A stretch of 64,000 bases of DNA from Anaerolineae bacterium (GTDB lineage: Bacteria; Chloroflexota; Anaerolineae; Anaerolineales; Villigracilaceae): contig JBBITE010000011.1 of assembly GCA_037440905.1 (NCBI GenBank), positions 10,037 through 74,036 of the forward strand. Direction: 5' to 3'. Both the position numbers and the translations under genes were made by a program. Position 1 is the first letter of the stretch, and each line of letters begins with the position of its first letter. Under the pieces are notes generated by a model. It ran no database searches, had not been told where the DNA came from, and saw only the letters and a program-made list of their open reading frames with translations. Of the stretch, positions 1,852 to 30,865 are shown piece by piece.

Positions 1852-1884
1852 GCGGCTTCGACAAGACGACTTCAGGTGTGCAGC

Positions 1885-2397
1885 ATGACTGTTTCCTGGT
1901 ACGCGATGCGCAGCAAGCCCAACAAGGAAGAATTCCTCGCCGGTCAACTTCAGGCATACGGTGTAGAAGTCTTTCTGCCGCTTTTGCATGTCAAGCCGGT
2001 CAATCCGCGCGCGCGGCGCTTTCGTCCTTATTTCCCCAACTATCTATTCGTACACGTGGATTTGGAGCAGGTCAACATTTCCGACTTGAACTGGATGCCG
2101 GGCGCCTCGGGGCTGGTCAGTTTTGGAGGAGAACCCGCTTCTGTGCCAGACCTGCTGATTGCCGCCCTCAAAAAACAGATCGAACACTACAACGCTTCTC
2201 TGCGCGATGAACACAGCGGCTTTCAGCGCGGCGATGTTATTCTCATCGAAGACGGTCCTTTTGCGGGGTATGAAGCGGTCTTCGATGTATACACCTCCGG
2301 GCAGGAGCGCGTGCGCGTGCTGCTCAGTCTGCTTCAGCGTAGGCAAATGCCGGTTGAAATTCCGACCAGGCATGTTCGTCGTGTGAAGCGTTCTTGA
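1885..2397 (+). CDS. NusG-paralog transcription antiterminator (RfaH/UpxY/LoaP-like; NGN+KOW)
   Basis: WYAMRSKPNKE..VEVFLP..PYFPNYLFVH..PGASGLVSFG NGN domain; GDVILIEDGPFAGYEA KOW; RVRVLLSLL. Confidence 0.9.
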   Translation: MTVSWYAMRSKPNKEEFLAGQLQAYGVEVFLPLLHVKPVNPRARRFRPYFPNYLFVHVDLEQVNISDLNWMPGASGLVSFGGEPASVPDLLIAALKKQIEHYNASLRDEHSGFQRGDVILIEDGPFAGYEAVFDVYTSGQERVRVLLSLLQRRQMPVEIPTRHVRRVKRS

Positions 2398-2550: not shown

Positions 2551-4065
2551 ATGAGCATTCGTACTGAAGTGGAAAAATTTCACTTGGTTGCTGTCTCGAA
2601 GAAAATCAAAAAAGCAAACGAATTGATCCCCCGCCACATGCAATGGCTTGTGTATGTGATGGTGCTGATCCTTTCGGATGCTTTGATGACGTTCTTTGCG
2701 TTTTTGCTGGCGTATTATCTGCGTTTCAACGCTGAATTCCTTGCCTGGCTTTTCAACCAGGATGCGCAGGTTTCCTTCAAAACCTACAGCATTTTGCTCT
2801 ACTCCATGCCTTTTCTCTGGCTGGTGATCTTTGCCATGAATGGGCTGTATGCCAGAGATAACCTGCTGGGCGGCACGCAGGAATATGCGCGTGTGTTTCG
2901 CTCGATTGTGACCGGCTTCCTGCTGATCATCTTTGCCGGCTTTGTGGATACGACATTGTTCATCGCGCGCGGCTGGCTGTTCATGGCGTGGGGCTTGAAC
3001 TTCCTTTTTGTTGCCAGCGCCCGCTTTTGGCTGAGGCGCGTGGTGTATGCGCTCCGCAAATATGGGTTTTTCCTCACCCCGGCGGTTATCGTGGGCGCCA
3101 ATCAGGAAGGACGCTGGCTTGCCGAGCAGCTGCTGAAATGGGAGACCTCCGGCTTGCATCTGGTCGGCTTTGTGGATAAGAAGACGCCCGCCACCTTCCC
3201 TCTTTTCCACGACCTTGTATCGCTGGGAACCGTGGAGCAGCTGGGCGAAATCATCGAGCGGTATAACATTGGCGAGGTCATTCTGGCCTCCAGCGCCATT
3301 TCCACGCGCGATTATCTGCTGGAGATTTTCCGCAAATACGGCGTTTCGGATAAAGTCAACATCCGCATGTCCTCCGGCTTGTACGAAATTCTCACCACCG
3401 GCTTGACGGTCAATGAATTTGCTTACGTGCCTCTTGTGTACGTGAATAAAGTGCGCCTGACCGGTTCTGATACAATCCTGAAGTTTCTGCTGGACTATGT
3501 GCTGACGCTCGGCTTGTTGCTCCTCCTTTTGCCGCTGCTGCTGGTGCTGGCGATCCTGGTAAAAGTAAGTTCACCAGGACCCATCATTCACAAACGGCGG
3601 GTGATGGGGTTGAACGGCAAACAATTCTATGCCTACAAGTTCCGCACCATGGTCATCAACGGCGACGAGGTGCTGGCGCAGCATCCTGAATTGCAGGAAG
3701 AACTGGCGCGCAACCACAAGTTGAAGAACGACCCGCGCGTTACCCGTATTGGCGCCTTTTTGAGAAAGTACAGCCTGGATGAACTGCCGCAACTGTTCAA
3801 CGTCCTCAAACGGGAAATGTCGCTGGTTGGGCCGCGTATGATCTCACCCGAAGAAGTTGCCATGTACAAACAGTTCGATATGAACCTGCTCACAGTGCTG
3901 CCGGGCATCACCGGCGTCTGGCAGGTGAGCGGGCGCTCAGATATTTCCTACGAAGAGCGCGTGCGGCTGGATATGTATTACATCCGCAATTGGAGCATCT
4001 GGCTCGACCTCCAACTTCTCTTTCAAACCATCCCTGCAGTTCTCAAGAGCCGTGGGGCATACTAA
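2551..4065 (+). CDS. polyprenyl-phosphate sugar-1-phosphate transferase (WcaJ/WbaP-like initiating enzyme)
   Basis: N-terminal TMs, CoA-binding-like IVGANQEG domain, C-terminal KFRTM, DPRVTRIGAFLRKYSLDELPQLFNVL, SLVGPR, PGITGVWQVSGR. Confidence 0.95.
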   Translation: MSIRTEVEKFHLVAVSKKIKKANELIPRHMQWLVYVMVLILSDALMTFFAFLLAYYLRFNAEFLAWLFNQDAQVSFKTYSILLYSMPFLWLVIFAMNGLYARDNLLGGTQEYARVFRSIVTGFLLIIFAGFVDTTLFIARGWLFMAWGLNFLFVASARFWLRRVVYALRKYGFFLTPAVIVGANQEGRWLAEQLLKWETSGLHLVGFVDKKTPATFPLFHDLVSLGTVEQLGEIIERYNIGEVILASSAISTRDYLLEIFRKYGVSDKVNIRMSSGLYEILTTGLTVNEFAYVPLVYVNKVRLTGSDTILKFLLDYVLTLGLLLLLLPLLLVLAILVKVSSPGPIIHKRRVMGLNGKQFYAYKFRTMVINGDEVLAQHPELQEELARNHKLKNDPRVTRIGAFLRKYSLDELPQLFNVLKREMSLVGPRMISPEEVAMYKQFDMNLLTVLPGITGVWQVSGRSDISYEERVRLDMYYIRNWSIWLDLQLLFQTIPAVLKSRGAY

Positions 4066-6023: not shown

Positions 6024-6635
6024 ATGGAACCCCTCCAGCGTTATCTTTCTGCCTTACAGCACACCATGCAAAAACTGCCGCAGCCCCTTATCGCCGAAGT
6101 CATCTACACCCTTCAGCGCGCCCGCATGCAGGGGAATCAGGTCTTCATCATGGGCAATGGCGGCTCCGCCTCCACCGCCTCTCACTTCGTCTGCGACCTT
6201 GCCAAAAACACCCGCCACACCGGCCTGCCTCACTTCCGCGCCATCGGCCTGGCAGACAACATGGAAATCTTCTCCGCCTACGCCAATGACGAAGGCTACG
6301 AAAATGTCTTCTCGCAGCAGTTACTCAACCTCGTCAAACCCGGCGACATCGTCATTGCCATCTCCGCCAGCGGCAACTCCAAAAACGTCGTCAATGCTGT
6401 GGAAGAAGCCCGTAAATGCGGCGCCTTCACCATCGGCTTCACCGGCTTCAGCGGCGGGCGCCTCGGTCAAATCGTGGACCTGCACATCCACGTCGAAAGC
6501 GACATCATCGAACACGTCGAAGATATCCACCTCATGCTCGAACACATGATCGTCCGCACCATCAAAGACCAGCCCTATATTGGCATCAACCTGCAGGCAG
6601 AAGCAAAACTCCCTGCCGAAGTGCTGGGAGATTAA
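6024..6635 (+). CDS. gmhA: phosphoheptose isomerase (SIS domain)
   Basis: [52 protein letters not shown] 6024 follows AAAGGA RBS. Confidence 0.88.
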
Positions 6636-7186
6636 CCCTCCTCCCTCAGCACAACCTCCATCGCCTGCGCCAGATCGTTACAAACCACATACCCGCTCAC
6701 CCCCGGCGGCTGAGGCAAAGCCAGTTGTTCTGCGCCCCGCCCCGTCCGCAACAGAATCGTTCCGCGCACACCCGCCGCCTGCCCCGCCTGCACATCGCTC
6801 CACGCATCGCCGATCATCCATGAACGTTTCAAATCCAACGATAACTCCCTTGCCGCCTGCAGCAATAACCCCGGCTTCGGCTTGCGGCATTCGCATTCCT
6901 CCTGCGGGCTGTGCGGGCAAAGATACACACCATCCACCCTGCCCCCCTCCGCGCGGATCAAACGCACCAGGCGGTCATTGATCTCCTCCGCCTGCTTCAG
7001 CGAAATGATCCCGCGCCCCACCGCCGACTGATTGGTCACAATCACCACCTTGTATCCATCCAGCCGCGCCAGCCTCAGCGCATCCAGCGCCTGCGGAAAC
7101 ACACTCACCTGTGACCACTCCCGCACATAGTCGGGCCGATTTTCAATCAACACGCCGTCACGATCAAGAAAAATAGCAGGAAACAT
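6632..7186 (-). CDS. gmhB: D,D-heptose-1,7-bisphosphate phosphatase (HAD)
   Basis: [29 protein letters not shown]; convergent with gmhA, stop codons overlap (TTAA). Confidence 0.9.
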
Positions 7187-7192
7187 GGCGAC

Positions 7193-7198
7193 ATTATA
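7193..7198 (-). promoter_or_regulatory. -10 box implying a leaderless gmhB transcript
   Basis: TATAAT on the minus strand ends 6 nt before the gmhB ATG; no Shine-Dalgarno; no clear -35. Confidence 0.5.
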
Positions 7199-7401
7199 CT
7201 CTTCGGAATTTTCACCCAGGCGAACTTTCTCCCCTCACAAGGCTTGACCCGCCCTGGATGCCACATGACAACACGGGACGCTCCGCCTCACCCTTACCCG
7301 CAGCCTGCTCCTGCTTCACTGGCTGGAGACGCCCTGCAGCATATCTGCCCGCCCGCTCAACCGCACCCTGTCGGAATGGCGGAGCACGCCTAAAACACAA
7401 C

Positions 7402-8148
7402 ATGCTCGAAAAACTACACCTCTACATCCGCCGTCAGGCATCCTCCATTCCGCGCTACATGTACGAACAGACCATCCTGTTCCTCTTCGGCTGGATACCC
7501 ACCCTGCTCGGCATCGGTCTGCGTGCGCTGGCGTACCGTCTCATCCTGCGCATGGACGGTCTCGCCGCCATTGAAAAAAACGTCCGCCTGCGCTTCGCCA
7601 ATTACATCAAACTTGGTCGCGGCGTTTACATAGATGAAGGCGCCTACCTGCATGCCTGCCCGCAAGGCATCGAAATTGGCGACAACACCATCGTCATGCA
7701 CGGCGCCGTGCTGCATGTGTACAACTTTCGTAATATGCCGCACTCCCGCATCACAATCGGAAAAGACAGCCTCATCGGTGAATACTCCGTCATTCGCGGG
7801 CAGGGCGGCGTGACCATCGGCGACCGCGTGTACACCTCCCCTTTCACCCAAATCATCGCCGTCAACCACGTTTTCGACGACCCCAGCCGCCCCTTCGTCG
7901 AGCAGGGAATCACGGCCGAGGGCATCGTCATCGAAGATGACGTCTGGCTGGGAGCCGGCGCGGTGATTACCGATGGTGTCCGCGTGGGCAAGGGAGCGGT
8001 AGTGGCGGCGGGCGCGGTTGTCACCAAAGACGTTCCCCCGCACACGGTGGTGGGCGGCGTGCCAGCCAAACCAATCAAAAACATGGACGGGAGCATCAGC
8101 AACCCTGAGAGAAAAATTTTTCATACAACGAAGGATGGAGGCTTATGA
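7402..8148 (+). CDS. left-handed beta-helix O-acyltransferase (WcaF/LacA-like)
   Basis: Hexapeptide repeats ([28 protein letters not shown]), [30 protein letters not shown] 7402 preferred over 7258. Confidence 0.9.
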
Positions 8149-9341
8149 CGATCTTATCTGTGGTCATTCCCGCATACAACGAAGAAAACGGCATCAAACA
8201 AATTGCCGAACGCGTGCTTGCCGTCGAACCGGCGCTCAAAGCGGTGGGCATCGAACGCCTGGAACTGCTCGTCGTGGACGACGGCTCGAAAGACAAAACG
8301 GCTGAAGTCGCGGCGGGCATCCCCGGCGTCACCCTGATTCGCCACCCCAAAAATCGAGGTTATGGCGCGGCGCTGAAGACCGGCTTCTCTAAAGCCAGCG
8401 GCGAATTGATTGGCTTTCTGGATGCCGATGGCACCTACCCGCCGGAATACTTCCCCCAACTATGCCAATCGGCCCTCAACGGCTCGGAACTGGTCATCGG
8501 CTCGCGCATGGCAGGCGCCGACAGCAAAATGCCCCTCACGCGCCGCATCGGTAACTTCTTTTTTGCCAACCTGCTCTCGCTTCTTGGCCGCCAAAAAGTG
8601 ACCGACAGCGCCAGCGGCATGCGCGTTTTCAAACGTGAAATCCTCGAACAAATCTACCCCCTGCCCGATGGCTTGAACCTGACCCCGGTCATGAGCACGC
8701 GCGCCCTGCACGAAGGCATTCGCGTTGTCGAGGTCCCCATCCCCTACAGCGAACGTGTCGGGCGCTCCAAACTCAGCGTCATCCGCGATGGTCAAATCTT
8801 CCTGCAAAGCATGTTGTGGACTGCCATGTCCTACAACCCGGTGCGCATCCTCGGCCTGGTGGGCTTGGCGGGCTTTGGCATTGCCGGGTTGATCTTTTTG
8901 TGGCTGCTTACCCTCCGCCTCAACGGCGTGACCACCCTCGGACCCGGCGGGGTGCTCGCCCTGTTCACTGCCATGGTTGCCTCCATCGCCGGGCTGAATA
9001 TCTTTGCCCTGGGCGTCACCTTCAATTACCTGGTTTCGTTGTTCTACAAGCGCCCCATCCGCCAGGGATTGTTCGGCAAACCCATCTTCAAAACGCCCCT
9101 CGACCGGCAGTTCGGCTGGATGGGCATCGCCTCCATGCTGCTTGGGTTGATTGTGGCGGTGACATCCTTTTTGTTGAGCATGAACGGCTGGGCAATTGAC
9201 CGCTTGTGGTTCTACCTGCTGGGGAGCGCCATGCTCTTTCTGGCAGGCATTCAACTGTTCATCTACTGGCTGTTGCTGCGCATTCTCGAAGAACTTAGCC
9301 AGCGTGAAGTCCGCACCAGGCATGATATGGGCCTGGCGTAA
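8145..9341 (+). CDS. GT2 glycosyltransferase, polyprenol-phosphate glycosyltransferase (DPM1-like) with C-terminal TMs
   Basis: [54 protein letters not shown]; about 4 C-terminal TM helices. Confidence 0.9.
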
Positions 9342-9407
9342 TTGTTTCAATCAATCGGTAATTCAGAGAAGATATTTCGTTTAGAGAGTATAGAAGGAGA
9401 GAATACA

Positions 9408-11072
9408 ATGACTATGAACGACCCCCAATCTGTCAACATGGGAAGCCGTCTGACCCCAAAACTGCGCATGGTGGATTTCCCCAATGCCGATACCATCGTC
9501 CGCAATGGATTGCTCGCCGCGCCGCGCTCGGAAGAAGCAGTGGATATCATGCTCGTCAACCCTCCCACCCCCGATGGCGGGCTGTGGATTCGCACCCAAC
9601 ACCGCGTCGGGCGGCGCACGCGCGAAAACATGGTTTGGCCCCAGGTCTCACTGGCGCAAATGGCGGCGTTGCTCCACCCCGTGTACAAAGTCAAAGTGGT
9701 GGATTGCAACGCCGAACGCATGGGCTGGCCCGAATTCACCCAACTGTTGGATAAATACCAGCCCAAATACTACCTCACCCAACTGACCGCTCCCACCCTC
9801 GAAAACGACATGTACGGGTGTTTCCTGGCACACGCCCGCGGCGCGAAGACCATCGCCTTTGGCACGCACATCACCCCCATCCCTGTCGAGACCATGCGCC
9901 CCTACCCCAGCCTCGACTTTGGCCTGGTCGGTGAACCGGACCTGACCATCCGCGACCTGCTCGACCACCTCGAAGGCAAATTCGACCAGCGTTCTCCGCA
10001 CATTCAGAAGATGTTCGAAAAGCAGGACCCCTCCTACAAGCCCTCTCTCAACCCGGATGGGTCGGTCAACATGCACGGCATCAAAGGCATTGCCTGGCGC
10101 AAGGGCGATCAAATCATCCTCAATCCCCCGCGTCCCTTTGTCGCTGATTTGGACGATATGCCCATCCCCATGCACGAACTGCTGCCGCTGCAGAAATACC
10201 GCATGCCCTACATCAAGGGTCCCTTCACCTTTATCGTCACCAGCCGCGGCTGCCCGGCGGGATGCACCTACTGCATTAAACACGTCAGTTACCAGTATTC
10301 CACCCGCATCCGCTCGCCCAAACTCATCATGGAAGAGTTGTGGCGGTTGAAAAAACTCGGCATCAACAACATCCACATGTACGCCGACTTGTTCACCGTC
10401 AACCGCGACCAGGTCGTCGAACTGTGCAAACTCATGATTGAGCAAAACATCAAAATCAAGTGGACCTGCAACAGCCGCGTGGACTTCGTGGACGAAGAAA
10501 TGCTCACCCTCATGGGCAAAGCCGGCTGCCGCCTGATTTCCTGGGGCATCGAAAGCGGCAACGAACAAATCCTCAAACATGCCCGCAAAGGCGCCTACCC
10601 CGATAAAGCCGAGCGCGCCCTGCGCTGGGCAAAGAAAGCCGGCATCATGAACTGGGGCTACTTTATCATCGGCTTGCCCGGCGAGACGGAAGAAACCATC
10701 CGTCAGACGATTGACTTTGCCAAGAAACTGCCGCTCGATATTGCGCTCTTCCATGTCGCCGCGCCCTACCCCGGCACGCCCTTCTTCTTCGAAGTGGTCG
10801 AAAACAAATGGTTCCGCCCTGGCACCCGCTGGGAACAGGTGGACATGGACAAAGGCACCGTGTTGGATTACCCCAACCTGCCCGCCGAAAAACTGCTCTA
10901 CTGGCAAAAACGCGCCTTCCGCGAATGGGCGTTCCGCCCCGGGCCCATGCTGACCTACCTCAAAATGTTGACCTACGACTGGGCGACAACGAAAACCGCC
11001 ATCAACGTCGGCTTGCAGCACCTGTTCTGGGCGACCTCCGATTCCGGCGCGCCGGTGGGCGGAGCCAGTTAA
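9408..11072 (+). CDS. cobalamin-binding radical SAM protein (HpnJ-like/class B)
   Basis: LVNPP N-terminus, B12-binding domain (FGTHIT), SRGCPAGCTYC (CxxxCxxC), WGIESG, FIIGLPGET, AAPYPGT; AAGGAG RBS before ATG 9408. Confidence 0.88.
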   Translation: MTMNDPQSVNMGSRLTPKLRMVDFPNADTIVRNGLLAAPRSEEAVDIMLVNPPTPDGGLWIRTQHRVGRRTRENMVWPQVSLAQMAALLHPVYKVKVVDCNAERMGWPEFTQLLDKYQPKYYLTQLTAPTLENDMYGCFLAHARGAKTIAFGTHITPIPVETMRPYPSLDFGLVGEPDLTIRDLLDHLEGKFDQRSPHIQKMFEKQDPSYKPSLNPDGSVNMHGIKGIAWRKGDQIILNPPRPFVADLDDMPIPMHELLPLQKYRMPYIKGPFTFIVTSRGCPAGCTYCIKHVSYQYSTRIRSPKLIMEELWRLKKLGINNIHMYADLFTVNRDQVVELCKLMIEQNIKIKWTCNSRVDFVDEEMLTLMGKAGCRLISWGIESGNEQILKHARKGAYPDKAERALRWAKKAGIMNWGYFIIGLPGETEETIRQTIDFAKKLPLDIALFHVAAPYPGTPFFFEVVENKWFRPGTRWEQVDMDKGTVLDYPNLPAEKLLYWQKRAFREWAFRPGPMLTYLKMLTYDWATTKTAINVGLQHLFWATSDSGAPVGGAS

Positions 11073-11147: not shown

Positions 11148-12947
11148 TTGCGGAATTTCCTCCAAGATCATCGCTTCGCCCTCCTGGAACTGATACTTGT
11201 GTTGCTCTGTGGAGCGGTCTGGGTGATCGAACCAGCCTGGGGACTCTGGTTCATCCCGGCCGCTCTACTTCCATTCGCGTTACGCCTTCTCTTTTCCGGT
11301 GTCTCATTCGATGGGCGCGATGGACTCGTCCTGCTCTTTGGCGTCACTGCCTGGGTGGGGTATTGGGCGGCGTATGATCAGGCGGTTGCCTGGAACAAAG
11401 TCTGGCTGTTGATGACCGCCATCCTGCTTTATGTTGCGCTCAAGGCACAGCCGCAGGAAAACCTGCCTCACCTCTCCTTCCTTTTGTTTGGCATTGGCGT
11501 TGGCGTTGCACTGTACTTTTTTCTCACTCACGATTTTCTGGCGTTGCCGCGCAAACTTGAAATCGTCAACCGCCTGGGACGCTGGCTCATGAGCCTCCAC
11601 CCGCCAACCGGCTGGACGCCCATTCATCCCAATTATGTCGCGGGAATGATTGCCATCACTGTTCCTTTTGTGGCTTTCCCTCTTCAATCGCTGCTGCGCA
11701 AGCATACGTCAGCCGCGCGCATAAGCATTGTGCTTATCATGGCCGGGCTGGCGCTTTCGGCGCTGGCGCTGCTCATGGCAACCTCGCGCGGAGTGATCCT
11801 AGCCGTGCTGAGCGGGGCAGGGGGCTGCCTGTTGTGGTGGTTGATTCATTCGGGCAGAATCAAGCGTCAGATTAAGAGTGAAGCGGTTTTTCCCGTCCTG
11901 TTGTTGATGTATCTGGGTGTGGTCATCGCGTTTTTGTGGATCGGTCCTGCACGGTCGGGCAGTCTTTTTAGCGGCCATTATTATTATGGCAACAGCAGCC
12001 GCAGCGAATTGTTTGCCAGAAGCCTGTATCTGCTGCAGGATTATTTGTTTACTGGCGGCGGGCTGGGCGCGTTCCCCGGCTTGTATTCGCAATATCTGCT
12101 CGATATTCCCTTTTACAACGTGCCAAACAGCCACAACCTGTTTTTGGATGTTGGCATCGAACAGGGGTTGGCGGGCGGGCTCGCTTTTTTGAGTTTGTAT
12201 CTTTTGAGCATTTGGACGCTGGCAAAGGCGCTCGCCAGGCGCGGCGCGGCGCAGACCTTTACACTGCTGGTGTTGTTCGCGCTGATGGTTGCCTGCATTC
12301 ACGGCATGGTGGATGATTATTTGTATAATGGAGACGGTAGCGTATTCTCTCTGTTGCTGATAGGGCTGGCGGAAAATCTCCGCCGCCGCGAGGAACCGCC
12401 CGTTGTGCGCCGCAGCGAACCCCGCCGGGTGGCTGCCATTGTCCTCCTGTGGCTGGTGATTGCCCTGGCAAACGGCAGGCAGATTGCGGCAGCATGGCAG
12501 GCGAACCTCGGCGCGGTTCAACTGGCAAAAGTGGAATTGGCGGACTTTCCCGAAAGCGGCTGGGCAGGAGAGGCGATTGTCCTCCGCCTGAACGCGGCAG
12601 ACGCTTCGCTTCGTACCGCCCTGCGGCTTGACCCTGCCAATCGGACGGCGAATCACCGCCTGGGCTTGATCTCCCTCTACCGCAGAGATTTTGGCTCCGC
12701 CGCCCGTTTTCTCGAGACTGCCCTTGTCCGCGCCCCCTCACACCGTGGCATTGTCAAAGCGCTTGCATATTGCTATGTTTGGCTGGGTGAAATGGAACGA
12801 GCGCAGAGTCTCTTGCAGCACATCCCCGAAGCGGCAGAAGAACTGGATGTGTATATCTGGTGGTGGACGACGCAAAACCGCAGCGATTTATCTGCCAATG
12901 CTAGGCTGGCGCTCGAGGGGCTGCAAGCCGCCCCGCTTCACCCTTGA
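11148..12947 (+). CDS. O-antigen ligase/Wzy_C-family membrane protein with C-terminal TPR-like helices
   Basis: About 12 TMs, TSRG motif, SHNLFLDVGIEQG Wzy_C motif, C-terminal 'ALRLDPANRTANHRLG' TPR-like segment. Confidence 0.85.
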   Translation: MRNFLQDHRFALLELILVLLCGAVWVIEPAWGLWFIPAALLPFALRLLFSGVSFDGRDGLVLLFGVTAWVGYWAAYDQAVAWNKVWLLMTAILLYVALKAQPQENLPHLSFLLFGIGVGVALYFFLTHDFLALPRKLEIVNRLGRWLMSLHPPTGWTPIHPNYVAGMIAITVPFVAFPLQSLLRKHTSAARISIVLIMAGLALSALALLMATSRGVILAVLSGAGGCLLWWLIHSGRIKRQIKSEAVFPVLLLMYLGVVIAFLWIGPARSGSLFSGHYYYGNSSRSELFARSLYLLQDYLFTGGGLGAFPGLYSQYLLDIPFYNVPNSHNLFLDVGIEQGLAGGLAFLSLYLLSIWTLAKALARRGAAQTFTLLVLFALMVACIHGMVDDYLYNGDGSVFSLLLIGLAENLRRREEPPVVRRSEPRRVAAIVLLWLVIALANGRQIAAAWQANLGAVQLAKVELADFPESGWAGEAIVLRLNAADASLRTALRLDPANRTANHRLGLISLYRRDFGSAARFLETALVRAPSHRGIVKALAYCYVWLGEMERAQSLLQHIPEAAEELDVYIWWWTTQNRSDLSANARLALEGLQAAPLHP

Positions 12948-12962: not shown

Positions 12963-15611
12963 ATGAAACGACATCGCCTGATAACGATCTTATTGACCCT
13001 GCTGTTAACAGCCGCCCTTTTCCTTGCCTCGGCTCCGATTAGCCGCGCCCAAACGGGACTCGATTGGTCTCAACCAGCCAACCTTTCCTTCTCCGGCGCA
13101 GCAACTAACCCGGTGGTGACGGTGGACGACCGCGGCTTTATTCACGTCATCTGGCTGGATGCAGTGGATGGCTATAAATATGCCGAAAGCCGCGATGGCA
13201 AAACCTGGTCGCCGGCGCAGACGGTGAAGTTCCCATTCGGACCGAAAGACCCGCCGCCAATTTTGATCCCCGGCCGCGGCGGCGTCATCCATGTCTTCTG
13301 GGTTACAGGCAGCGAGCAGCGCTTGTTTTACGGGCAAGCCACAGCCGGAGATTTTCCTTACCCGCAAAATTGGATTCTGGTCAGCCGCATTCAAAACTCC
13401 GTTGCAAGTTTCGATGCGATGGTGGATGCGCAGGGCGTACTGCATGTCGCTTTTATTCAAAGCAGCCTGGTGGACGATAAGCCGGCAGGGGTGTATTACA
13501 CCCAGTCTCCTTCGGGCGGCGGCTTTTGGGTGGAGCCGCGCCTGTTGTACGCCTCCGAATACTTCCGTTCCGCCCTTCAGAGCGATTTGTACGTCCGCCT
13601 CAGCACCTCGAACACCTCCAGCGGTCAGCGCGTCTATGTGACCTGGGATAACCGCGCTCAGAAACGTGTTTTCCTTGCTATCTCTCAAAACAATGGCGCC
13701 ACCTGGGGCGAGGCAAAGTCCATGAAGGGACCCGAAGATACCGGCGGCTTCGAAACGCCCTTCAATCTCACAGTCTCCGCCTTTGGCAGAAACGTATTGT
13801 TGATCTGGCAGGTGGGCGAACCGGGCTCATCCAAATGCACCGTGTACAGCCAATGGTCCCAGGATAGCGGGCAGACGTGGGATGACCCCGTCGCCGTCCT
13901 GGGCGGGCGCACCGAATGCCCCGTCAGCACCAAAATCGTCGAGAGAAACGCCAAATTCACAACTGTCATTTTCGTCGGTCAGGTCAGCCCCTTCATGGTG
14001 GCCTGGGATGGTTCGCAGTGGAGCGACATTCAAACCCAAACTCAACTGCCCTCCATCGTCAACCCCCTCACCTTCGATGCTATTCTGCTCGGCTGCCGCT
14101 TCGACCTCGTGTACAAAAACCGCTTGTATGTCACCGGCTGCGATCAGGGGCGCGGCGGAGATGTGTGGTTCCTCTCCCGCGAGTTAACGCCCGTCGAAGA
14201 CTGGTTTGCCCCCTCTGTCGTTTGGGATGAACCGACCGTCTTCTCCATCCGTTCCGAAAACCCCGAACGCATCTCTCACTTCACCACCTCCCACGACGAC
14301 GCGGGAACGATTCACGCCGTCTGGCTTCAATCGCCCTTGCAGGGAGGCGGCGCTTCCATCGAATATGCCCGCTGGAATGGCGAAGAATGGGCGCCTGCTG
14401 AAGCCATCATCCCCTCGGTGGATGGCGTCCCGACCCGCCTGCTGGTCACCGCCGACCCTCTCAAGCGCCTGCTCCTCAATTGGGTGGACGGCTACAACGG
14501 CGACATCGTCTTCAGTTGGGCAAACATCGAGAAAGCCAACCTCTCTTCCGAGTGGGTGGACATCATCGGCTTGCCTACCCCCTCCCGCCTGGTGGATGAC
14601 GTGGATGTAGCCGTGGATGGTTCCGGCCGCATTGTGGCTGCCTACGTTGTGCCGGTCAACGAAGAGCGCGGCGTTTACATCGTGCAATCCACCGACAATG
14701 GACGAACCTGGAGCGCGCCTCTGTGCGCCTTCGATGCCGTTGCCGCCGGCTGGGAACGTGTGAAAAACGCCCGCCTTGCCCTGAGCGGCGATGGCGTGTT
14801 GCATCTCATCTTCATCAAGGACGCCGTCCGTGTGGGGCAGCCGGTTGGGTTGTATTATGCCCGTTCGGTGGACGGCGGACAAACCTGGAGCGACCCGCAA
14901 ATTTTCAGCGAAGGACAAATCCAATGGGCGGATATCGTCACCTACGACAAAGCCGCCGTTCATATCGTCTGGCAGGAATATGACGGACTCATCTTTGCCA
15001 ACGTCTCACAACTCTCCCAGGATGGCGGGATTAATTGGAGCAAACAGCATAACGTCACCGGCGTGAATGAAGAACAAACCCCCGTCTCGCTTGCCTTCAC
15101 CAGCGGCGGTTTGCTGCATTTCATTCAACTGGCGGGGAAACCCAACAACGACGCCTACAACCAAAAAGGCCTCGTCCTTCAGGATTGGAAGTGGGATGGA
15201 ACCTCCTGGCAGCTCGACCTCACCAAAGACCTGCTCCTCAAAGGGACCGAAATTCAATACAGCCTTTCCGCCGACCTGACCTCCACCGGCTACCTCGGTG
15301 TATTTATCCCGGTCGAATACATTGACCTGGACGGAAAATTCAAAAGCGAAATCCTCACCTTTACCCGCTTCATCGAAGACGCTGAAACGGCTGCCTTCAC
15401 CCAAGCCCCGGTTCTCCCTGCTCTCCCCACCGCCAGCGGAGATGCGCCCGTTTCCATCATCGAATCTACCCCCACGCCCGATTTCTCCGTCCTTTATGAC
15501 GACAACATCTCCACCTCCCCGCTTCAGCAAAACCTGGTGGGGTTGATCTTGCTGGGCATTGGGGTGGTGGTCACCTTCCTCCTTCTCGTATGGCGCCGAC
15601 CCGCAAAGTGA
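12963..15611 (+). CDS. secreted, C-terminally anchored Asp-box (BNR) beta-propeller protein
   Basis: Signal peptide; six Asp-box-like motifs (SRDGKTW, SQNNGATW, SQDSGQTW, STDNGRTW, SVDGGQTW, SQDGGINW); Pro/Thr-rich linker; TM plus WRRPAK tail. Confidence 0.85.
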   Translation: MKRHRLITILLTLLLTAALFLASAPISRAQTGLDWSQPANLSFSGAATNPVVTVDDRGFIHVIWLDAVDGYKYAESRDGKTWSPAQTVKFPFGPKDPPPILIPGRGGVIHVFWVTGSEQRLFYGQATAGDFPYPQNWILVSRIQNSVASFDAMVDAQGVLHVAFIQSSLVDDKPAGVYYTQSPSGGGFWVEPRLLYASEYFRSALQSDLYVRLSTSNTSSGQRVYVTWDNRAQKRVFLAISQNNGATWGEAKSMKGPEDTGGFETPFNLTVSAFGRNVLLIWQVGEPGSSKCTVYSQWSQDSGQTWDDPVAVLGGRTECPVSTKIVERNAKFTTVIFVGQVSPFMVAWDGSQWSDIQTQTQLPSIVNPLTFDAILLGCRFDLVYKNRLYVTGCDQGRGGDVWFLSRELTPVEDWFAPSVVWDEPTVFSIRSENPERISHFTTSHDDAGTIHAVWLQSPLQGGGASIEYARWNGEEWAPAEAIIPSVDGVPTRLLVTADPLKRLLLNWVDGYNGDIVFSWANIEKANLSSEWVDIIGLPTPSRLVDDVDVAVDGSGRIVAAYVVPVNEERGVYIVQSTDNGRTWSAPLCAFDAVAAGWERVKNARLALSGDGVLHLIFIKDAVRVGQPVGLYYARSVDGGQTWSDPQIFSEGQIQWADIVTYDKAAVHIVWQEYDGLIFANVSQLSQDGGINWSKQHNVTGVNEEQTPVSLAFTSGGLLHFIQLAGKPNNDAYNQKGLVLQDWKWDGTSWQLDLTKDLLLKGTEIQYSLSADLTSTGYLGVFIPVEYIDLDGKFKSEILTFTRFIEDAETAAFTQAPVLPALPTASGDAPVSIIESTPTPDFSVLYDDNISTSPLQQNLVGLILLGIGVVVTFLLLVWRRPAK

Positions 15612-17146
15612 TGAAAACCGTCCCCCGGCTGTTTCTGATCATAGTCACTGCCTGCCTGCTGCTCTCGGCTGGCTTGACATTTCAGCCTGCCGCTGCCAGC
15701 CCCGCTTACACCTGGTCCCCGGATGAAAAAGTGCCCGGCTACCTCGATGATACCTATCCTCCCTTCCTCATCGCTGACCGCAATCGCACGGTGCACGCCT
15801 TCACCAGCCAGTGGGTCTATGCCGACGGGCGAAAACTTGCCATCGTGTACCGCCAGTGGACTCTCAACGGCGGCTGGACGCGCCCGGTAGACATCATCCT
15901 TTCCCCCATCGGTGGAAACGCCAATTTCATGGGCGCCTTCCTGGATGCCTCCGATACCTTCCATGTTGTCTTCACCGCCACCGAAAACATCTCCCGCCGC
16001 ACCTTTGTCTTTTACTCGCATGCCCCCGCCTCCCTCGCCGACCTGGCGGCTGCCTGGTCGCCGCCGGTCCTGGTGGGCGATGGCGCGCTTGGGCTGAACT
16101 CCGGCGCCATCGCCGGAGATGAGCAGGGCTACCTTGTCGTTATCTACAGTGGCAACCGCGATGGCAGCGGTGTCTATTATGTTCACTCCAAGAATGGCGG
16201 CAAAGAATGGAGCGATCCCGCGCCTCTTTTCCTGACCTTCAACGCCGACCTGAGCGCCTTCAGCGTGCGTCTCACCCCCGGCGCCGGGCAAACGCTGCGG
16301 GCAGCCTGGAATGTGGTCACAAACCTCGGCGTGGACGAATCCCTCTATTTCGCCAGTTTCGACACGCAGACCTCTGTCTGGAGTACTCCCGTCGAACTGG
16401 ACGAACGCATTAACCTGCCGGATTACTTCGGTCCATCCTTCCCGGTCATCACCGATAATGGACGCGAAATCGTGGTTTTCTACAATGGCGGCAATCCCGT
16501 CCCTGGCCGCCCCGTCGCCGCTGGCCGTCCCATTCAGCGCGCCAGAGTGTCCCTCGATGGCGGCATCAACTGGAGCGAACCGCTCGACCCCTTCCCCTTC
16601 CATGTAGGGCGCAGCGGTGAACACGCCATGGTTCTGGATGGCAGCGGTGTTCCTCACGTCCTGTTCGTCCAACGTATCGAAAGTCTCGACGAAAGAGGCA
16701 ACTACTCCATCGTCGGCGGTATTTGGCACAGCGTCTTTCAAAACAACGTCTGGAGCAACCCCGACCGCTTCGTCACCACCCTCTCCCCGCACGATGTCCA
16801 TGCGGTGGTTGTGCAGGGCAACATCCTGCTGGCGGTCTGGCGGCAAGATCCGGGCGAAGGCGTCAGCGGAATCTGGTACTCCTACAACGTCCTCGACCTT
16901 CCCGAACTTCCCGTCACCCCTCTTGCCCCTGCTACGCTCCAGGTTTCCATCCAAGAAACTCCCACTTCGCCGCCGTCCACTGTTGCTTCCACCCCTACTC
17001 CCCTTCCCCCTTTTCTGGAAGATGCGCCTCCTTCAGACCTCGGCAGCAACCCTGCCCTTCCCATCATCATCGCCCTCGCGCCGGTGATGTTGATTCTCAT
17101 CGGCGTCATTGTTGGGTATCGTTTCCTCAACAGCCGCCGCGAATAG
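15611..17146 (+). CDS. secreted, C-terminally anchored Asp-box beta-propeller protein (paralog)
   Basis: ATG overlaps previous TGA; signal peptide; SKNGGKEW, SLDGGINW; ETPTSPPSTVASTPTP linker; TM plus NSRRE tail. Confidence 0.85.
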   Translation: MKTVPRLFLIIVTACLLLSAGLTFQPAAASPAYTWSPDEKVPGYLDDTYPPFLIADRNRTVHAFTSQWVYADGRKLAIVYRQWTLNGGWTRPVDIILSPIGGNANFMGAFLDASDTFHVVFTATENISRRTFVFYSHAPASLADLAAAWSPPVLVGDGALGLNSGAIAGDEQGYLVVIYSGNRDGSGVYYVHSKNGGKEWSDPAPLFLTFNADLSAFSVRLTPGAGQTLRAAWNVVTNLGVDESLYFASFDTQTSVWSTPVELDERINLPDYFGPSFPVITDNGREIVVFYNGGNPVPGRPVAAGRPIQRARVSLDGGINWSEPLDPFPFHVGRSGEHAMVLDGSGVPHVLFVQRIESLDERGNYSIVGGIWHSVFQNNVWSNPDRFVTTLSPHDVHAVVVQGNILLAVWRQDPGEGVSGIWYSYNVLDLPELPVTPLAPATLQVSIQETPTSPPSTVASTPTPLPPFLEDAPPSDLGSNPALPIIIALAPVMLILIGVIVGYRFLNSRRE

Positions 17147-17154
17147 GAAACCTG

Positions 17155-18915
17155 ATGGATTCGATTATCGGCTTTACCCTCCACAGCCCGCTGGAAGAAA
17201 CCTCTGCCAGACGTTTGTTTGCTGCGCAGGAGCAGGCGCTTTCCCATTTTCCGCACCTGGAACGGAAAACCATCTCACTGGGCTTTTCCAGCCTTCATCT
17301 GTGGGGGCGAAGCGGCATGGAAAAGCGGCTTCACACGCTGCCGGATGGTTCGCTGGCGGCGCTCATCGGTTCGCCGCACGCGGCAGAGATCAACCTGGCA
17401 GACGTGCAGGATGCCTTGCTTGCCGATACCTTCGAAATTCCCTGGGATGGGCGTGTCATCCTGCTGCACATCAGCGCCGACGGCAAACGCTGGCGGATGT
17501 GGAACGACTGGCTGGGGAGCATCCCGGTCTTCCATGCCGAAGCGGGGGGCGGACGCATCGCTTCGACACTCGAGCCTGTGGTGGTCGCCTCCGCTGGCTA
17601 CACCCCCGACGACTTTTTCCTGCCGGGGCTGGTCTCGCTGCTGATCAATGGGCATTTCATTTCGGATTGGACACTGTACAAAGGCATGAAGGTCATTCCG
17701 CCTGACAGCCGCATCGAGTGGGACGAAAAAGGCTTCCGCGCGGAAACGCTTTGGTCTGTGGAGCCAAGCCAGAGCCGTTGGGAAGCGGGCTGGGATGATC
17801 TGGTGGATGAGATGTACGAACTATCGCGCAAAGCGATTGCCGATGTGCTGAAGACTCATCCCACCTGGATCTTGCCGTTATCTTCCGGTATGGATTCCCG
17901 CCTGATTGCCGGCGTCGCTGCAGAGGTAGGGGCAGAAGCCTATGCCTATACCTGGGGCGCGCACAACACCACCGATGCCGTCTATTCGCAAAAAATCGCC
18001 CGCGCGCTTGGCATCCCCTGGAAACGCATTGACCTGCCCCGCGATTTTATGGTGACCTACACTCCCACATGGGCAGATTTGTTCGGCAGTTCCATGCACT
18101 TTCATGGCATGTACCAGATGGCATTTCTTGATCAAATCCAATCCGAAAGACCTGCCCCGATTATTTCCGGTTTTCTTGGCGATGTTTTGGCTGGCGATGC
18201 GGTCAAGGATTTTCATATCGTGCATAAAGATCGAAGAAGTTATCAACTTGAAAGCGATTGGTACTCTCATTGGACGGTGGATGAGGTGCGAACACGCATC
18301 CCAATCCCTATTGCCGATGCGTTGGAAACCAACGCCGAGGAATATCAACGGCAGATTGCTTCACTGCCGGGCGCGTTTTTTCAGAAAACCCAATTTCTCG
18401 AACTTCACAACCGCCAGCGCGGTTTTACCAGTTTCCATTCCATCCTTGCGGATTACTGGCGCGGCGTGGCTGTACCTTTTCTCAACCGCGCCTATGCCCG
18501 TTTTTGCCTCTCCCTTCCGCGCCTGGCGCTCGATGACCGCAGGCTGCTTGCGGAGGTCTTTCGCCGTTATTACGGCAAACTGGCGGTCATCCCCGGCACC
18601 TACGCGCCCGACCCTCTCATCATCAGCGGTAAATACCTCCTTCTGCGCCGACTGGCAGCCATGCTGGTCCCGGCCTTGCATCTCGGACCGCTCCAAGGCT
18701 TTGGCAACGTACAACTCCGCATGGATATTGAATCGGTGCAGCACAGCGGACGCAAGGCGCTCTGGCCACTCTTTGATGTCTGCCAGCGTCTCTCTGAATG
18801 GCTGGATTTCAGCCAACTGGAACGCGACTTTCAGACCGTGATGATCTCAAAGGAAGATATTCGTCCATTGCGGCGGCTGCAATCGGCGCAAACCCTGGCT
18901 TACCGCCTGCTCTAG
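17155..18915 (+). CDS. asparagine-synthase-related ATP-dependent amide ligase 1
   Basis: Ntn-like N-terminal domain (NDWLGSIPVFH) and PP-loop LPLSSGMDSR; N-terminal catalytic Cys absent (MDSIIGF). Confidence 0.8.
   Translation: MDSIIGFTLHSPLEETSARRLFAAQEQALSHFPHLERKTISLGFSSLHLWGRSGMEKRLHTLPDGSLAALIGSPHAAEINLADVQDALLADTFEIPWDGRVILLHISADGKRWRMWNDWLGSIPVFHAEAGGGRIASTLEPVVVASAGYTPDDFFLPGLVSLLINGHFISDWTLYKGMKVIPPDSRIEWDEKGFRAETLWSVEPSQSRWEAGWDDLVDEMYELSRKAIADVLKTHPTWILPLSSGMDSRLIAGVAAEVGAEAYAYTWGAHNTTDAVYSQKIARALGIPWKRIDLPRDFMVTYTPTWADLFGSSMHFHGMYQMAFLDQIQSERPAPIISGFLGDVLAGDAVKDFHIVHKDRRSYQLESDWYSHWTVDEVRTRIPIPIADALETNAEEYQRQIASLPGAFFQKTQFLELHNRQRGFTSFHSILADYWRGVAVPFLNRAYARFCLSLPRLALDDRRLLAEVFRRYYGKLAVIPGTYAPDPLIISGKYLLLRRLAAMLVPALHLGPLQGFGNVQLRMDIESVQHSGRKALWPLFDVCQRLSEWLDFSQLERDFQTVMISKEDIRPLRRLQSAQTLAYRLL
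17311..17567 (+). repeat. 257-bp block identical to 19085-19341 (copy 1)
   Basis: Read base by base: AGCGGCATGG...ATCGCTTCGAC identical in both paralogs at offset 1774. Confidence 0.9.
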
Positions 18916-18928
18916 TGGGAGGAAACCC

Positions 18929-20698
18929 ATGCAATCTATTGTTGGCTTCACTGTCTACTCGAATCTTGCCCCTGAAAGCCTTCATGCCGTGAAGGCTGTC
19001 CACAGCCGCGCGCTCGGACATTTTTCCGGCTTGCAGCATACCGTCCTCACCCTTGGCGAAACCTGCCTGGAAGTGTGGGGGCGCAGCGGCATGGAAAAGC
19101 GGCTTCACACGCTGCCGGATGGTTCGCTGGCGGCGCTCATCGGTTCGCCGCACGCGGCAGAGATCAACCTGGCAGACGTGCAGGATGCCTTGCTTGCCGA
19201 TACCTTCGAAATTCCCTGGGATGGGCGTGTCATCCTGCTGCACATCAGCGCCGACGGCAAACGCTGGCGGATGTGGAACGACTGGCTGGGGAGCATCCCG
19301 GTCTTCCATGCCGAAGCGGGGGGCGGACGCATCGCTTCGACGCTGGAACCTGTCACCGTTGCCGCAGCCGGCTACACCCCCGACGACTTTTTCCTGCCGG
19401 GGCTGGTCTCGCTGCTGATCAACGGGCATTTCATCTCGGATTGGACGCTATACAAAGGCATGAAGGTCATTCCGCCCGATAGCCGCATGGAATGGGGGGA
19501 AAACGGTTTTCGGGCGCAGCGGCTGTGGACGGTGGAACCAAGCCAAAGCCGCTGGGAAGCGGGTTGGGATGATCTGGTGGATGAAATGCACGAGTTGGCG
19601 CGCAAGGCCATTAGCCAGACGTTGAAGTTATATCCTGCCTGGGTGCTGCCTCTCTCGGCCGGGTTGGATTCGCGCCTCATCGCCGGAGTCGGCGCGGAAA
19701 TGGGCGCCGAGATGCACGCCTACGCCTGGGGCGAGCCGGCCTCCACCGATGTCGTTTACTCCCGTGAGATTGCCAGAGTGTTAGGGCTTCCGTGGAAACG
19801 CATCGAATTACATGAAGATTTCCTGCTGTGTTACACGCCGGTCTGGGCTCATCTGTTTGGCAGTTCCATGCACTTTCATGGCATGTACCAGATGGATTTT
19901 TTGGACTCCCTGCCCGAAGAAAACCTCGCCGTCATCTCCGGCTTTTTGGGCGATGTGCTTTCCGGCAGCAGTCTGATGGAACAAAAAGAGGGACCTGTCT
20001 TTTATCGAAAAGACTGGTATCTGCACTGGTCGGTGAATGAATTGAGGGAGTTGCTGCCCTCCTTCCCGCTGGACGATGCTCTACAAGCGCTCACGGAGGA
20101 AATCAGAGCCCAGTTTGAGCAAATTCCAGGAACACGTTTTACCAAAGCGCTGCTGTTCGAAATGTGGAGCCGCCAGCGCCTGTTCACTTCCTTTCAATCT
20201 TCGCTGACACCTTATTGGATTGGCATTGCCACGCCCTATCTTAACCGCGCGTATGCGCGCTTCAACCTGTCGCTGCCAAGGGCAGTGCTCGAAAACCGAA
20301 GGCTGCTGGGAGATATCTTCCGCCGTTATTATGGCAAACTGGCAGTCATCCCCGGCACCTATGGCAGCGAGCCGTTCATCCGCACGGGGCGTTACATCCT
20401 CAGGCGCCGCATTGCCGAGCACCTTCCGCCTGTCCTGCATCATGGTCCCTTTGCCGGCTTCGACGATGTGCCTCTGCGCATGGATATTGACTGCATTCAA
20501 TCCATCGGGAAAAAGGCGCTCTGGCCGCTTTTCGACACTTTGAACGAACTCGCTTCGTGGATGAACACCAGCCTGCTGGAGCGCGAATACCAGACACTGA
20601 TGAATTCCAATCAAGACATCCGCCCGCTGCGGCGGCTGCAATCGGTACAAACGCTCGCGTACCGCCTGCGCACCGAAGAAAGAATTCCCCGCCCATGA
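18929..20698 (+). CDS. asparagine-synthase-related ATP-dependent amide ligase 2 (tandem paralog)
   Basis: Same architecture, LPLSAGLDSR; MQSIVGF N-terminus without Cys. Confidence 0.8.
   Translation: MQSIVGFTVYSNLAPESLHAVKAVHSRALGHFSGLQHTVLTLGETCLEVWGRSGMEKRLHTLPDGSLAALIGSPHAAEINLADVQDALLADTFEIPWDGRVILLHISADGKRWRMWNDWLGSIPVFHAEAGGGRIASTLEPVTVAAAGYTPDDFFLPGLVSLLINGHFISDWTLYKGMKVIPPDSRMEWGENGFRAQRLWTVEPSQSRWEAGWDDLVDEMHELARKAISQTLKLYPAWVLPLSAGLDSRLIAGVGAEMGAEMHAYAWGEPASTDVVYSREIARVLGLPWKRIELHEDFLLCYTPVWAHLFGSSMHFHGMYQMDFLDSLPEENLAVISGFLGDVLSGSSLMEQKEGPVFYRKDWYLHWSVNELRELLPSFPLDDALQALTEEIRAQFEQIPGTRFTKALLFEMWSRQRLFTSFQSSLTPYWIGIATPYLNRAYARFNLSLPRAVLENRRLLGDIFRRYYGKLAVIPGTYGSEPFIRTGRYILRRRIAEHLPPVLHHGPFAGFDDVPLRMDIDCIQSIGKKALWPLFDTLNELASWMNTSLLEREYQTLMNSNQDIRPLRRLQSVQTLAYRLRTEERIPRP
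19085..19341 (+). repeat. 257-bp block identical to 17311-17567 (copy 2)
   Basis: As above. Confidence 0.9.
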
Positions 20699-22101: not shown

Positions 22102-22113
22102 AAGGGAGGAAAA

Positions 22114-23229: not shown

Positions 23230-23251
23230 ACCTTATTTTTGGAGAGAATGA

Positions 23252-24508: not shown

Positions 24509-25287
24509 TCGCACAAACCAACCCGCTCCTCAAACTGCGCGACCTCATCTGGGCGTGGACGCTGCGCACCCTGCGCGGGCGTTATCAGCAGTCTGCTCTT
24601 GGCTGGCTGTGGGCAATCGTCCAGCCGGTGGCCACCGTCGCCATCTTTGCGGTGGTCTTCACCCGCATCGTCCCGGTGGATACGGGCGGCGTGCCGTACA
24701 TTCTCTTTTCCTACACGGCGGTCGTCCCCTGGACGCTGCTGGCGACATCGCTACCCGATATGGCGATGTCGCTCGTTCAAAACATGAACCTGGTGGGCAA
24801 AATTTACTTCCCGCGCGAGGCGCTGCCCATCGCCGCCCTGCTTGCCCGCATCGCCGACTTTGGCATCTCATTCATCCTGCTGGTGATTCTCGTTGTCATC
24901 TATGGGATTCCCGTCTCGCTGCCGGCTTTGCTCTACCTGCCCCTCATTTTCCTCATCCAAATCGCGCTTCTGCTCGGACTGGGAATTGGCACCGCCGCCC
25001 TGAACGTGTTCTACCGCGACGTGGACCCCCTGCTCAAACTTATCATCCAGGTCTGGTTCTATGCCTCGCCCATCCTCTACCCTGTGACTCTCGTCCCGCA
25101 GCAGTGGCAGTGGCTGTACTTCCTCAACCCCATGGCGGGCATCATCGCCGCCTACCGCGACGTGCTCATTTACGACCGCCTGCCGGGTGAATACCTGCTG
25201 CCTGCCGCCCTGGTTTCGCTGGTCATCTTTGCCCTGGGCTACTGGTTCTTCAAACGCGTCGAATTTCAGTTTGCAGATATTATCTGA
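24505..25287 (+). CDS. wzm: polysaccharide ABC exporter permease
   Basis: RYQQSALGWLWAIVQP, KIYFPRE, FYASPILYP, LNPMAGII. Confidence 0.93.
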   Translation: MIAQTNPLLKLRDLIWAWTLRTLRGRYQQSALGWLWAIVQPVATVAIFAVVFTRIVPVDTGGVPYILFSYTAVVPWTLLATSLPDMAMSLVQNMNLVGKIYFPREALPIAALLARIADFGISFILLVILVVIYGIPVSLPALLYLPLIFLIQIALLLGLGIGTAALNVFYRDVDPLLKLIIQVWFYASPILYPVTLVPQQWQWLYFLNPMAGIIAAYRDVLIYDRLPGEYLLPAALVSLVIFALGYWFFKRVEFQFADII

Positions 25288-25290
25288 CCT

Positions 25291-26679: not shown

Positions 26680-26699
26680 CATCACAAGCGCACAGTTCG

Positions 26700-26812: not shown

Positions 26813-26875
26813 AAGGTGCCCTGAAAGCACGGCAAAGCCTGAAAATTTTCCAAACATCGGACTCAAACAAACTGC

Positions 26876-29496: not shown

Positions 29497-29540
29497 CGCG
29501 GGCGTGCGCCGCAGACATCTTTTGAAATGGACTCTTGCTC

Positions 29541-30785: not shown

Positions 30786-30865
30786 TGCAAACCTGCATAC
30801 CCATCGTCCCATTCTCCTCCCGGCAGAGCGTACCCTGGGATTAAGTGGTGTGAAAGCCAATTTAC

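Follow-up and report, generated by a model that had tools for sequence, protein, structure and literature searches.

To our knowledge, radical S-adenosylmethionine (SAM) enzymes form bonds that are beyond the reach of all other enzymes, and we know of no characterized class B member of this group that is linked to a polyprenyl-phosphate family 2 glycosyltransferase (GT2). The closest described systems are HpnJ, which belongs with HpnI and the deacetylase HpnK to bacteriohopanetetrol cyclitol ether synthesis; AprD4, the radical SAM 1,2-diol dehydratase of apramycin biosynthesis; the class B enzymes TsrM, QCMT/MgmA, CysS, OxsB and TokK, as well as MoeK5 (whose substrate is lipid-linked), Fom3 and GenK; and the lipid-carrier pathways ArnC-ArnD-ArnEF-ArnT, GtrABC, CsbB/YfhO, PgfS and DprE1/E2 (decaprenyl-P-ribose), in which a carrier-charging GT2 has adjacent tailoring enzymes and a downstream multi-pass membrane protein is the likely user. 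Pathways of the ArnC, GtrABC, CsbB, PgfS and DprE1 type contain, as far as we know, no radical SAM enzyme. Action on lipid-linked sugars has been proposed or demonstrated for HpnJ and the calditol synthase Cds (PMC13459092), and similarity networks place MoeK5 together with HpnJ (PMC9204698). Here, we analyzed a 64-kb stretch (the window) of one contig, JBBITE010000011.1, from an Anaerolineales genome (Chloroflexota; 3.25 Mb, 98.1% complete), in which positions 7402 to 11072 hold three co-directional genes encoding a hexapeptide acyltransferase, a GT2 and a radical SAM enzyme (rSAM). The rSAM has class B architecture combined with a new set of partners and probably serves a new class of substrate. 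Our literature search found no paper that connects a polyprenyl-phosphate GT2 with a radical SAM enzyme or describes this cassette, and nothing relevant on radical SAM enzymes with undecaprenyl phosphate, GtrB, lipid-linked glycans or the Anaerolineae envelope.

The first gene of the cassette (7402 to 8148, forward strand) encodes a 248-residue protein of the LbH hexapeptide-repeat type with one N-terminal transmembrane (TM) helix (residues 73 to 92 in the numbering of the long open reading frame, ORF). It matched Pfam Hexapep with 65.5 bits and, among the NCBIfam models, the WcaF family and maltose O-acetyltransferase (E 1e-18 to 1e-21, all under cut-offs), and its PDB matches were 3ect and maltose and galactoside O-acetyltransferases. 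The protein is thus predicted to be a membrane-anchored sugar O-acetyltransferase (AT), closest to the maltose/galactoside/WcaF type. The GT2 gene (8145 to 9341, forward strand; 398 residues) overlaps the AT stop by 4 nucleotides (ATGA). Its product matched Pfam Glycos_transf_2 (PF00535) with 118 bits and the NCBIfam models AglJ, dolichyl-P-hexose transferase, ArnC, PgfS and PpgS, with every equivalog under its cut-off. The best PDB matches, aligned over residues 4 to 300, were P. furiosus DPMS (5mlz), ArnC (9hwj, 9bhc and 8vxh) and GtrB (5ekp), and the nearest solved structures were all polyisoprenyl-phosphate glycosyltransferases. As in that group, a GT-A GT2 domain is followed by C-terminal TM helices, here four (segments at 232 to 382), and the protein lies nearest to known members. 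It is therefore a predicted polyisoprenyl-phosphate glycosyltransferase, DPMS/ArnC/GtrB/AglJ-like. An earlier note on this DNA, made from its letters alone, had placed an acyltransferase, a lipid-carrier GT2 and a radical SAM enzyme together in this region; the gene set was recovered there, and the structure matches to DPMS, ArnC and GtrB bear out the lipid-carrier type. No riboswitch (e.g., for cobalamin or SAM) was found in the 215-nucleotide leader at 7187 to 7401. A search of public RNA runs for signs of co-transcription found none containing the stretch.

The rSAM gene (9408 to 11072, forward strand) begins with the ATG at 9408, preceded by a GAAGGAG ribosome-binding site read directly from the sequence (GAAGGAGAG, 9394 to 9402, forward strand), and not at TTG 9342; database gene calls and orthologues likewise start at MTMNDPQ, and the product has 554 residues. 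With 103 bits against Pfam Radical_SAM (PF04055; threshold 29.5), the protein belongs to the superfamily, and its class B architecture consists of an N-terminal Rossmann-like domain, a partial TIM barrel and C-terminal helices. The CxxxCxxC motif reported in the earlier note was confirmed as CPAGCTYC at 10251 to 10274 (forward strand) and is the predicted site of the radical SAM [4Fe-4S] cluster; its cysteines, C282, C286 and C289 (Cys304, 308 and 311 of the 576-residue ORF), are invariant in a 42-sequence family alignment. The YADLF sequence, singled out in the same note as unusual, proved to be no oddity, as A-D-x-F, T-D-x-F and D-D-x-F all occur among relatives and the second Asp is invariant. 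No TM segment was predicted in the rSAM. An AlphaFold model (pLDDT 85, pTM 0.84) was compared to solved structures with Foldseek, which gave AprD4 (6fd2) as the best match, with a TM-score of 0.80 over nearly the full length, followed by TsrM, QCMT, CysS, OxsB and TokK; AprD4 was also the top solved-structure match by sequence (1.7e-27; with a profile, 3.4e-37). In a maximum-likelihood tree of 117 relatives, the Anaerolineae rSAM proteins formed one clade (SH-aLRT 100). The family lacks the N-terminal "GRC" cysteine found in most of the aligned relatives of ~470 residues. Nested within it are the representative proteins P0123, P0133 and P0147 (loci L090 and L091), which have no CxxxCxxC cysteines (e.g., NRSCPIDHEDSIKYG) and may, judged by their sequences, be pseudo-enzymes; they sit on long branches and are known only from short, low-coverage contigs, so assembly error is possible.

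The three genes are tightly coupled across the class. A search of a one-genome-per-species collection with a 3-sequence alignment gave at least 550 matching stretches that encode a relative, and the locus counts given here and below refer to the best 80 of these. All 80 were from Anaerolineae, were 76 to 97% identical, and included the cultured Anaerolinea thermolimosa IMO-1. The order AT-GT2-rSAM was kept in most of them, with the GT2 found in 63/80 and the AT in 54/80, and many of the loci without a GT2 or AT are cut by contig ends. The order also held in members only 48 to 51% identical (L083 and L085), where the further neighbors differ. Of 201 genomes drawn evenly from across the class for a phyletic profile, 72 had the rSAM. 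Both rSAM and AT were present in 70 genomes, only the rSAM in 2, only the AT in 3 and neither in 126 (Fisher 1e-47); for rSAM and GT2, the corresponding numbers were 63, 9, 2 and 127 (Fisher 1e-39), where both Fisher values ignore shared ancestry. The GT2 adjoined the rSAM in 55 of the 63 genomes having both, and the co-occurrence pattern spanned 51 genera. The proposed link of the rSAM to an acyltransferase and a lipid-carrier GT2 is thus upheld by near-perfect phyletic co-occurrence and by adjacency. Since the rSAM is almost always found with a membrane AT and a lipid-carrier GT2, it probably modifies a sugar of a surface glycan by radical chemistry. With only 72/201 genomes carrying the gene, a core housekeeping function throughout the Anaerolineae was rejected. 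The distribution was patchy: five other sampled genomes of the GTDB family to which the window belongs (three other genera) had no rSAM, GT2 or AT, and other families carry rSAM copies up to 79% identical, which suggests that the cassette was lost or laterally transferred within Anaerolineae.

The earlier note had likened both ends of the rSAM to HpnJ and had proposed scoring it against TIGR03471. HpnJ was indeed the best-scoring curated model, and the domain order is the same, but the score was 214.9 bits against a cut-off of 577.6 (206 bits in a genome-wide search, which found no second HpnJ-like gene), so that membership fails. Residues 244 to 561 aligned to model positions 142 to 464 of 472; the resemblance therefore stands for the core and C-terminus, but not for the N-terminus, which was unmatched. 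BchE came second (143 bits, cut-off 481), and neither BchE nor HpnP took the enzyme ahead of HpnJ. Ten relatives, ranging from close ones down to those with 30% identity, scored 157 to 306 bits against the HpnJ model, indicating that such a match marks a vast uncharacterized HpnJ/BchE-like cloud rather than HpnJ function. The family further differs from HpnJ by an insert of 30 to 60 residues between its two domains. Squalene-hopene cyclase, whose absence from the window the earlier note had pointed out, was found neither there nor in the whole 98.1%-complete genome (best TIGR01507 match 20.1 bits, cut-off 431.1), and a hopanoid pathway is missing from the genome. In the NCBIfam scan, the GT2 had no HpnI match (HpnB gave only 18.5 bits) and is DPMS/ArnC-like rather than HpnI-like; HpnI and HpnK partners were not found, and the rSAM has an acetyltransferase as neighbor instead of the HpnK deacetylase. 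An identity as HpnJ was rejected on the partial, low-scoring match and the missing squalene-hopene cyclase, HpnI and HpnK, and a BchE-type cyclase on its score and the glycan-synthesis gene context. That the rSAM could be a genuine HpnJ with a place in hopanoid synthesis, or else a porphyrin cyclase of the BchE type, is hardly credible, even though HpnJ and BchE are the top two models and relatives bear the automatic JGI name "anaerobic Mg-protoporphyrin IX monomethyl ester cyclase": both scores lie far below the cut-offs and the context is glycan synthesis throughout. The analysis corrects these misleading database names for the family (BchE-type cyclase, YgiQ).

A different matter is whether the rSAM could share the type of chemistry and turn a lipid-linked hexose into a carbocyclic cyclitol by ring contraction as in HpnJ and Cds, ring rearrangement being the boldest idea of the earlier note. 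HpnJ is the best curated model (215 bits), both enzymes have been proposed to contract sugars on membrane lipids (PMC13459092), and the layout of a GT2, a tailoring enzyme and an rSAM echoes HpnI/HpnK/HpnJ, in which HpnJ likewise has a GT2 and a sugar-tailoring enzyme beside it. However, the score is far under the HpnJ cut-off and carries little functional information when every member of the huge uncharacterized cloud reaches 150 to 300 bits, and the GT2 is not of the HpnI kind. Moreover, a cyclitol phosphate would no longer be a glycosyl donor and therefore fits poorly with a carrier-type GT2 and a ligase-like downstream gene. We regard ring contraction as improbable.

The earlier note had also described the N-terminus as a B12-binding domain and the rSAM as a cobalamin enzyme. 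In the N-terminal Rossmann-like domain (9540 to 9977, forward strand), PF02310 (B12-binding) gave no match at E<=0.01, where Pfam found the radical SAM core only. At E<=10, the N-terminal 150 residues aligned to PF02310 positions 11 to 120 with 13.4 bits (E 0.07; cut-off 32.1), whereas the basal family member P0279 scored 30.2 bits and the sister clade (P0132) 45 bits. In the 42-sequence alignment, the domain is very strongly conserved, with the invariant residues LVNPP...IRxQHRVGRRxRExMxWPQ...D99...TxxND134...G152-T-H-x-T...D170...E176, among which the residues common to all relatives (D99, TxxxD134, G152xH, D170 and E176) are retained. No solved structure aligned to this domain by sequence, even with the 42-sequence profile; the AlphaFold model shows a Rossmann-like beta/alpha fold. 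Taken together, the sub-threshold alignment, the 30 to 45 bits of the relatives and the modeled fold indicate that the domain is homologous to, and by sequence and model is predicted to descend from, the B12-binding domain. The domain named in the note is thus retained as a homologous one that escapes Pfam at normal thresholds, but the cobalamin label is not supported, as AprD4, the best structural match, has a Rossmann-like N-domain and yet binds no cobalamin (2026 review, PMC12931638). The case warns against inferring B12 dependence from domain architecture alone.

The chemistry can be viewed in two further ways that differ in the cofactor. As a cobalamin-dependent class B enzyme, the rSAM would place a methyl group on an unactivated carbon, either in the sugar or in its acetyl group, like the C-methylating GenK, Fom3 or MoeK5. 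The homology of the N-domain to PF02310, with 30 to 45 bits in the sister clades, the retained motif residues, the strong fold matches to TsrM, QCMT, CysS, OxsB and TokK and the presence of other B12 enzymes in the genome are in line with this, and methylases make up most of the characterized class B enzymes (PMC12931638). Against it are the PF02310 score of only 13.4 bits, the cobalamin-free AprD4 as the best match both in fold and in PDB sequence, and the nearest HMM, HpnJ, being a proposed non-methylase (PMC9204698). Methylation is accordingly a possibility that we consider somewhat unlikely.

Alternatively, the rSAM could be a cobalamin-independent enzyme of the AprD4 type that dehydrates, deoxygenates, epimerizes or oxidizes a sugar diol. 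AprD4 also modifies a sugar, is the top match by both sequence and fold, and has a cobalamin-free Rossmann-like N-domain (PMC12931638), which would agree with the divergence of the rSAM N-domain from PF02310. The two proteins are, however, only 21% identical, and the AprD4 family HMM (NF033070) gave 111.9 bits against a cut-off of 500 and covered the core only (residues 265 to 492), outscored by the HpnJ, BchE, ApyD and PhpK models. Furthermore, AprD4 uses a soluble aminoglycoside together with the reductase AprD3, and no AprD3-like partner is conserved beside the rSAM in the best 80 loci. An AprD4-type reaction is therefore rather doubtful.

For the pathway as a whole, the reading we favor, with chances that appear to us evenly balanced, is that the three genes form one functional cassette making a tailored polyprenyl-phosphate-linked sugar. 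In the order of steps that we infer, the GT2 would take its monosaccharide from a nucleotide sugar and load it onto polyprenyl phosphate on the cytoplasmic side of the membrane, and the membrane-tethered AT would O-acetylate the lipid-carried sugar. The rSAM would cleave SAM at the CPAGCTYC [4Fe-4S] cluster to give the 5'-deoxyadenosyl radical, which would abstract a hydrogen from the sugar and so start a modification beyond ordinary enzymes. The tailored product may then be flipped and decorate a cell-surface glycan, glycoproteins or the adjacent Ser/Thr/Pro-rich BNR proteins outside the cytoplasm, with the Wzy_C-TPR protein encoded next as its probable user. Sugar tailoring on the carrier has precedents in ArnD, NaxD and DprE1/E2. 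If so, this might be the first radical SAM tailoring on a polyprenyl-phosphate monosaccharide, yielding a C-branched, deoxygenated or carbocyclic sugar that is absent as a nucleotide sugar and serves as an Anaerolineae surface decoration, a tentative proposal to which we assign somewhat less than an even chance. In the boldest version of such on-carrier tailoring, a ring contraction like that of HpnJ and Cds would give a polyprenyl-phospho-cyclitol.

Several observations weigh against this scheme. The Wzy_C family normally uses undecaprenyl-diphosphate-linked (Und-PP) oligosaccharides, not Und-P-monosaccharides. Neither a small flippase (no ORF of 70 to 200 residues with >=3 TM segments) nor a canonical GT-C transferase was found in the 64-kb window, whereas the lipid-carrier pathways have GtrA/ArnE-type flippases or GT-C enzymes; here, the downstream protein is of the Wzy_C/TPR type and is a candidate, not a canonical GT-C, for the transferase or extracytoplasmic user of the lipid-linked product. 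As the rSAM has no TM segment, a lipid-linked rather than a soluble substrate is what we infer. The N-domain has diverged from B12-binding domains (13.4 bits), and the Fisher values take no account of common descent. Finally, the rSAM is unlinked from AT-GT2 in ~10 to 15% of the genomes.

In such genomes the rSAM (80 to 84% identical) had moved among housekeeping genes (L038, L040, L047, L043 and L044; L029, L051, L046 and L066). Its new neighbors were either uvrB, rpoD and a DnaJ-like gene on one side and a gene with a CHRD domain on the other (uvrB-rpoD-rSAM-CHRD) or mutS, DUF3786 and the GmhB-like HAD gene (mutS-DUF3786-HAD|rSAM). When 8 genomes with a relocated rSAM were searched, the AT-GT2 pair persisted elsewhere in 6, often with a BNR-like gene directly after it; the seventh showed only the GT2, in a short flank, and the eighth (G202) had neither gene at the threshold used. 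One genome (G204; loci L098 and L029) appears to carry two rSAM copies, one after the GT2 and one beside the HAD gene and mutS.

These relocations bear on the question of whether the rSAM instead acts one step before the GT2, on a substrate that is still soluble (a nucleotide sugar or a sugar phosphate), with the GT2 loading the sugar already modified. The GmhB-like phosphatase gene, found near the rSAM in 48/80 loci, stays directly upstream of it in L029, L046, L051 and L066, where AT-GT2 moved away, and an HddA-like kinase is enriched among carriers (33/72 rSAM-positive against 8/129 rSAM-negative genomes). The rSAM itself is without a membrane segment, and AprD4, its best structural match, acts on a soluble pseudodisaccharide. 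On the other hand, more than half of the rSAM-positive genomes (39/72) have no HddA-like kinase, so the rSAM is not tied to the heptose precursor pathway; dependence on that pathway was rejected, the kinase being enriched but not required. The tightest partners are a membrane-bound GT2 and a membrane-tethered AT, and enzymes of the sister clades sit with flippase-like membrane proteins. A soluble substrate consequently strikes us as an unlikely, if reasoned, choice. Among the sister and near-outgroup enzymes (P0132, P0129 and P0136; 38 to 46% identical), P0132 and P0136 have GtrB-sized GT2s and LPG_synthase_TM proteins at their loci, P0132 also DegT and PglD-like genes, and P0129, whose short contig carries no GT2, adjoins a small membrane protein that is EamA/ArnE-like. 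A weak EamA-like gene of 123 residues precedes the cassette in L085. The contigs of the deeper relatives P0155, P0162 and P0149, as well as those of P0123 and P0133, are too short for gene context.

The lipid-linked reading matters for a large group of proteins. HpnJ/BchE-like relatives amount to ~31,000 representative clusters at E<=1e-10, very few of which have a known function. With its unusually clear partner set, a lipid-carrier GT2 and a membrane AT, the present family becomes open to test by reconstituting three genes. Should a polyprenyl-phosphate sugar prove to be the substrate, the assembly of bacterial envelope glycans would gain a new type of step, and a new sugar in Anaerolineae would then be probable. 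Members of this class are plentiful in wastewater, sediments and anammox reactors; hardly anything is known of the chemistry of their cell envelopes.

The genes around the cassette also belong largely to glycan synthesis. Directly downstream (11148 to 12947, forward strand) lies the gene for the Wzy_C-TPR protein, a membrane protein of the O-antigen-ligase family that ends in a TPR domain (Wzy_C 43 bits, TPR_19; ~12 TM segments) and had no PDB sequence match. This gene follows the rSAM in 52/80 loci. It is followed by genes for two BNR/Asp-box propeller proteins (12963 to 17146, forward strand). Both have a signal anchor at the N-terminus and a TM helix at the C-terminus, as well as a linker rich in Ser/Thr/Pro. 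BNR-propeller proteins occur in 43/80 loci, BNR-like genes stay beside AT-GT2 even after relocation of the rSAM, and the proteins may be glycosylation targets or partners. Within 10-kb flanks of the A. thermolimosa locus, heptose, Wzy_C and BNR genes were not found, and the neighbors there are other sugar genes.

On the opposite strand, divergent from the cassette, is the gene for the GmhB-like HAD-IIIA phosphatase (6632 to 7186; NF006506 176.4 bits, cut-off 178), one of the heptose-type genes near the cassette along with HddA-like and GmhA-like genes. For the missing heptose-1-phosphate nucleotidyltransferase, the window offers a single candidate, a 251-residue NTP_transferase encoded 29 kb downstream of these genes (36135 to 36890, forward strand), with weak RmlA, GlmU, AglF and mannose-1-P guanylyltransferase scores. 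The glycan locus is headed by a NusG paralogue (1876 to 2397, forward strand; RfaH 98.9 bits against 144.5, UpxY 67.7 against 100), which is held at the locus head in 22/80 related loci, and a WbaP-like initiating phosphotransferase is encoded at 2551 to 4065. Positions 20557 to 33437 (forward strand) hold genes for a GT2-TPR protein, an ATP-grasp protein, an ABC exporter made up of Wzm and a Wzt with a Wzt_C domain, and at least six further GT2/GT4 proteins. The Wzt/Wzm genes point to an ABC-transporter-dependent glycan pathway, here also with the WbaP-like initiating phosphotransferase. Before these, two tandem asparagine-synthase-like genes (16723 to 20698, forward strand; weak Pfam Asn_synthase match) have translations that share ~120 identical residues, from GRSGMEKRLH... 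to ...RIASTLEPV.

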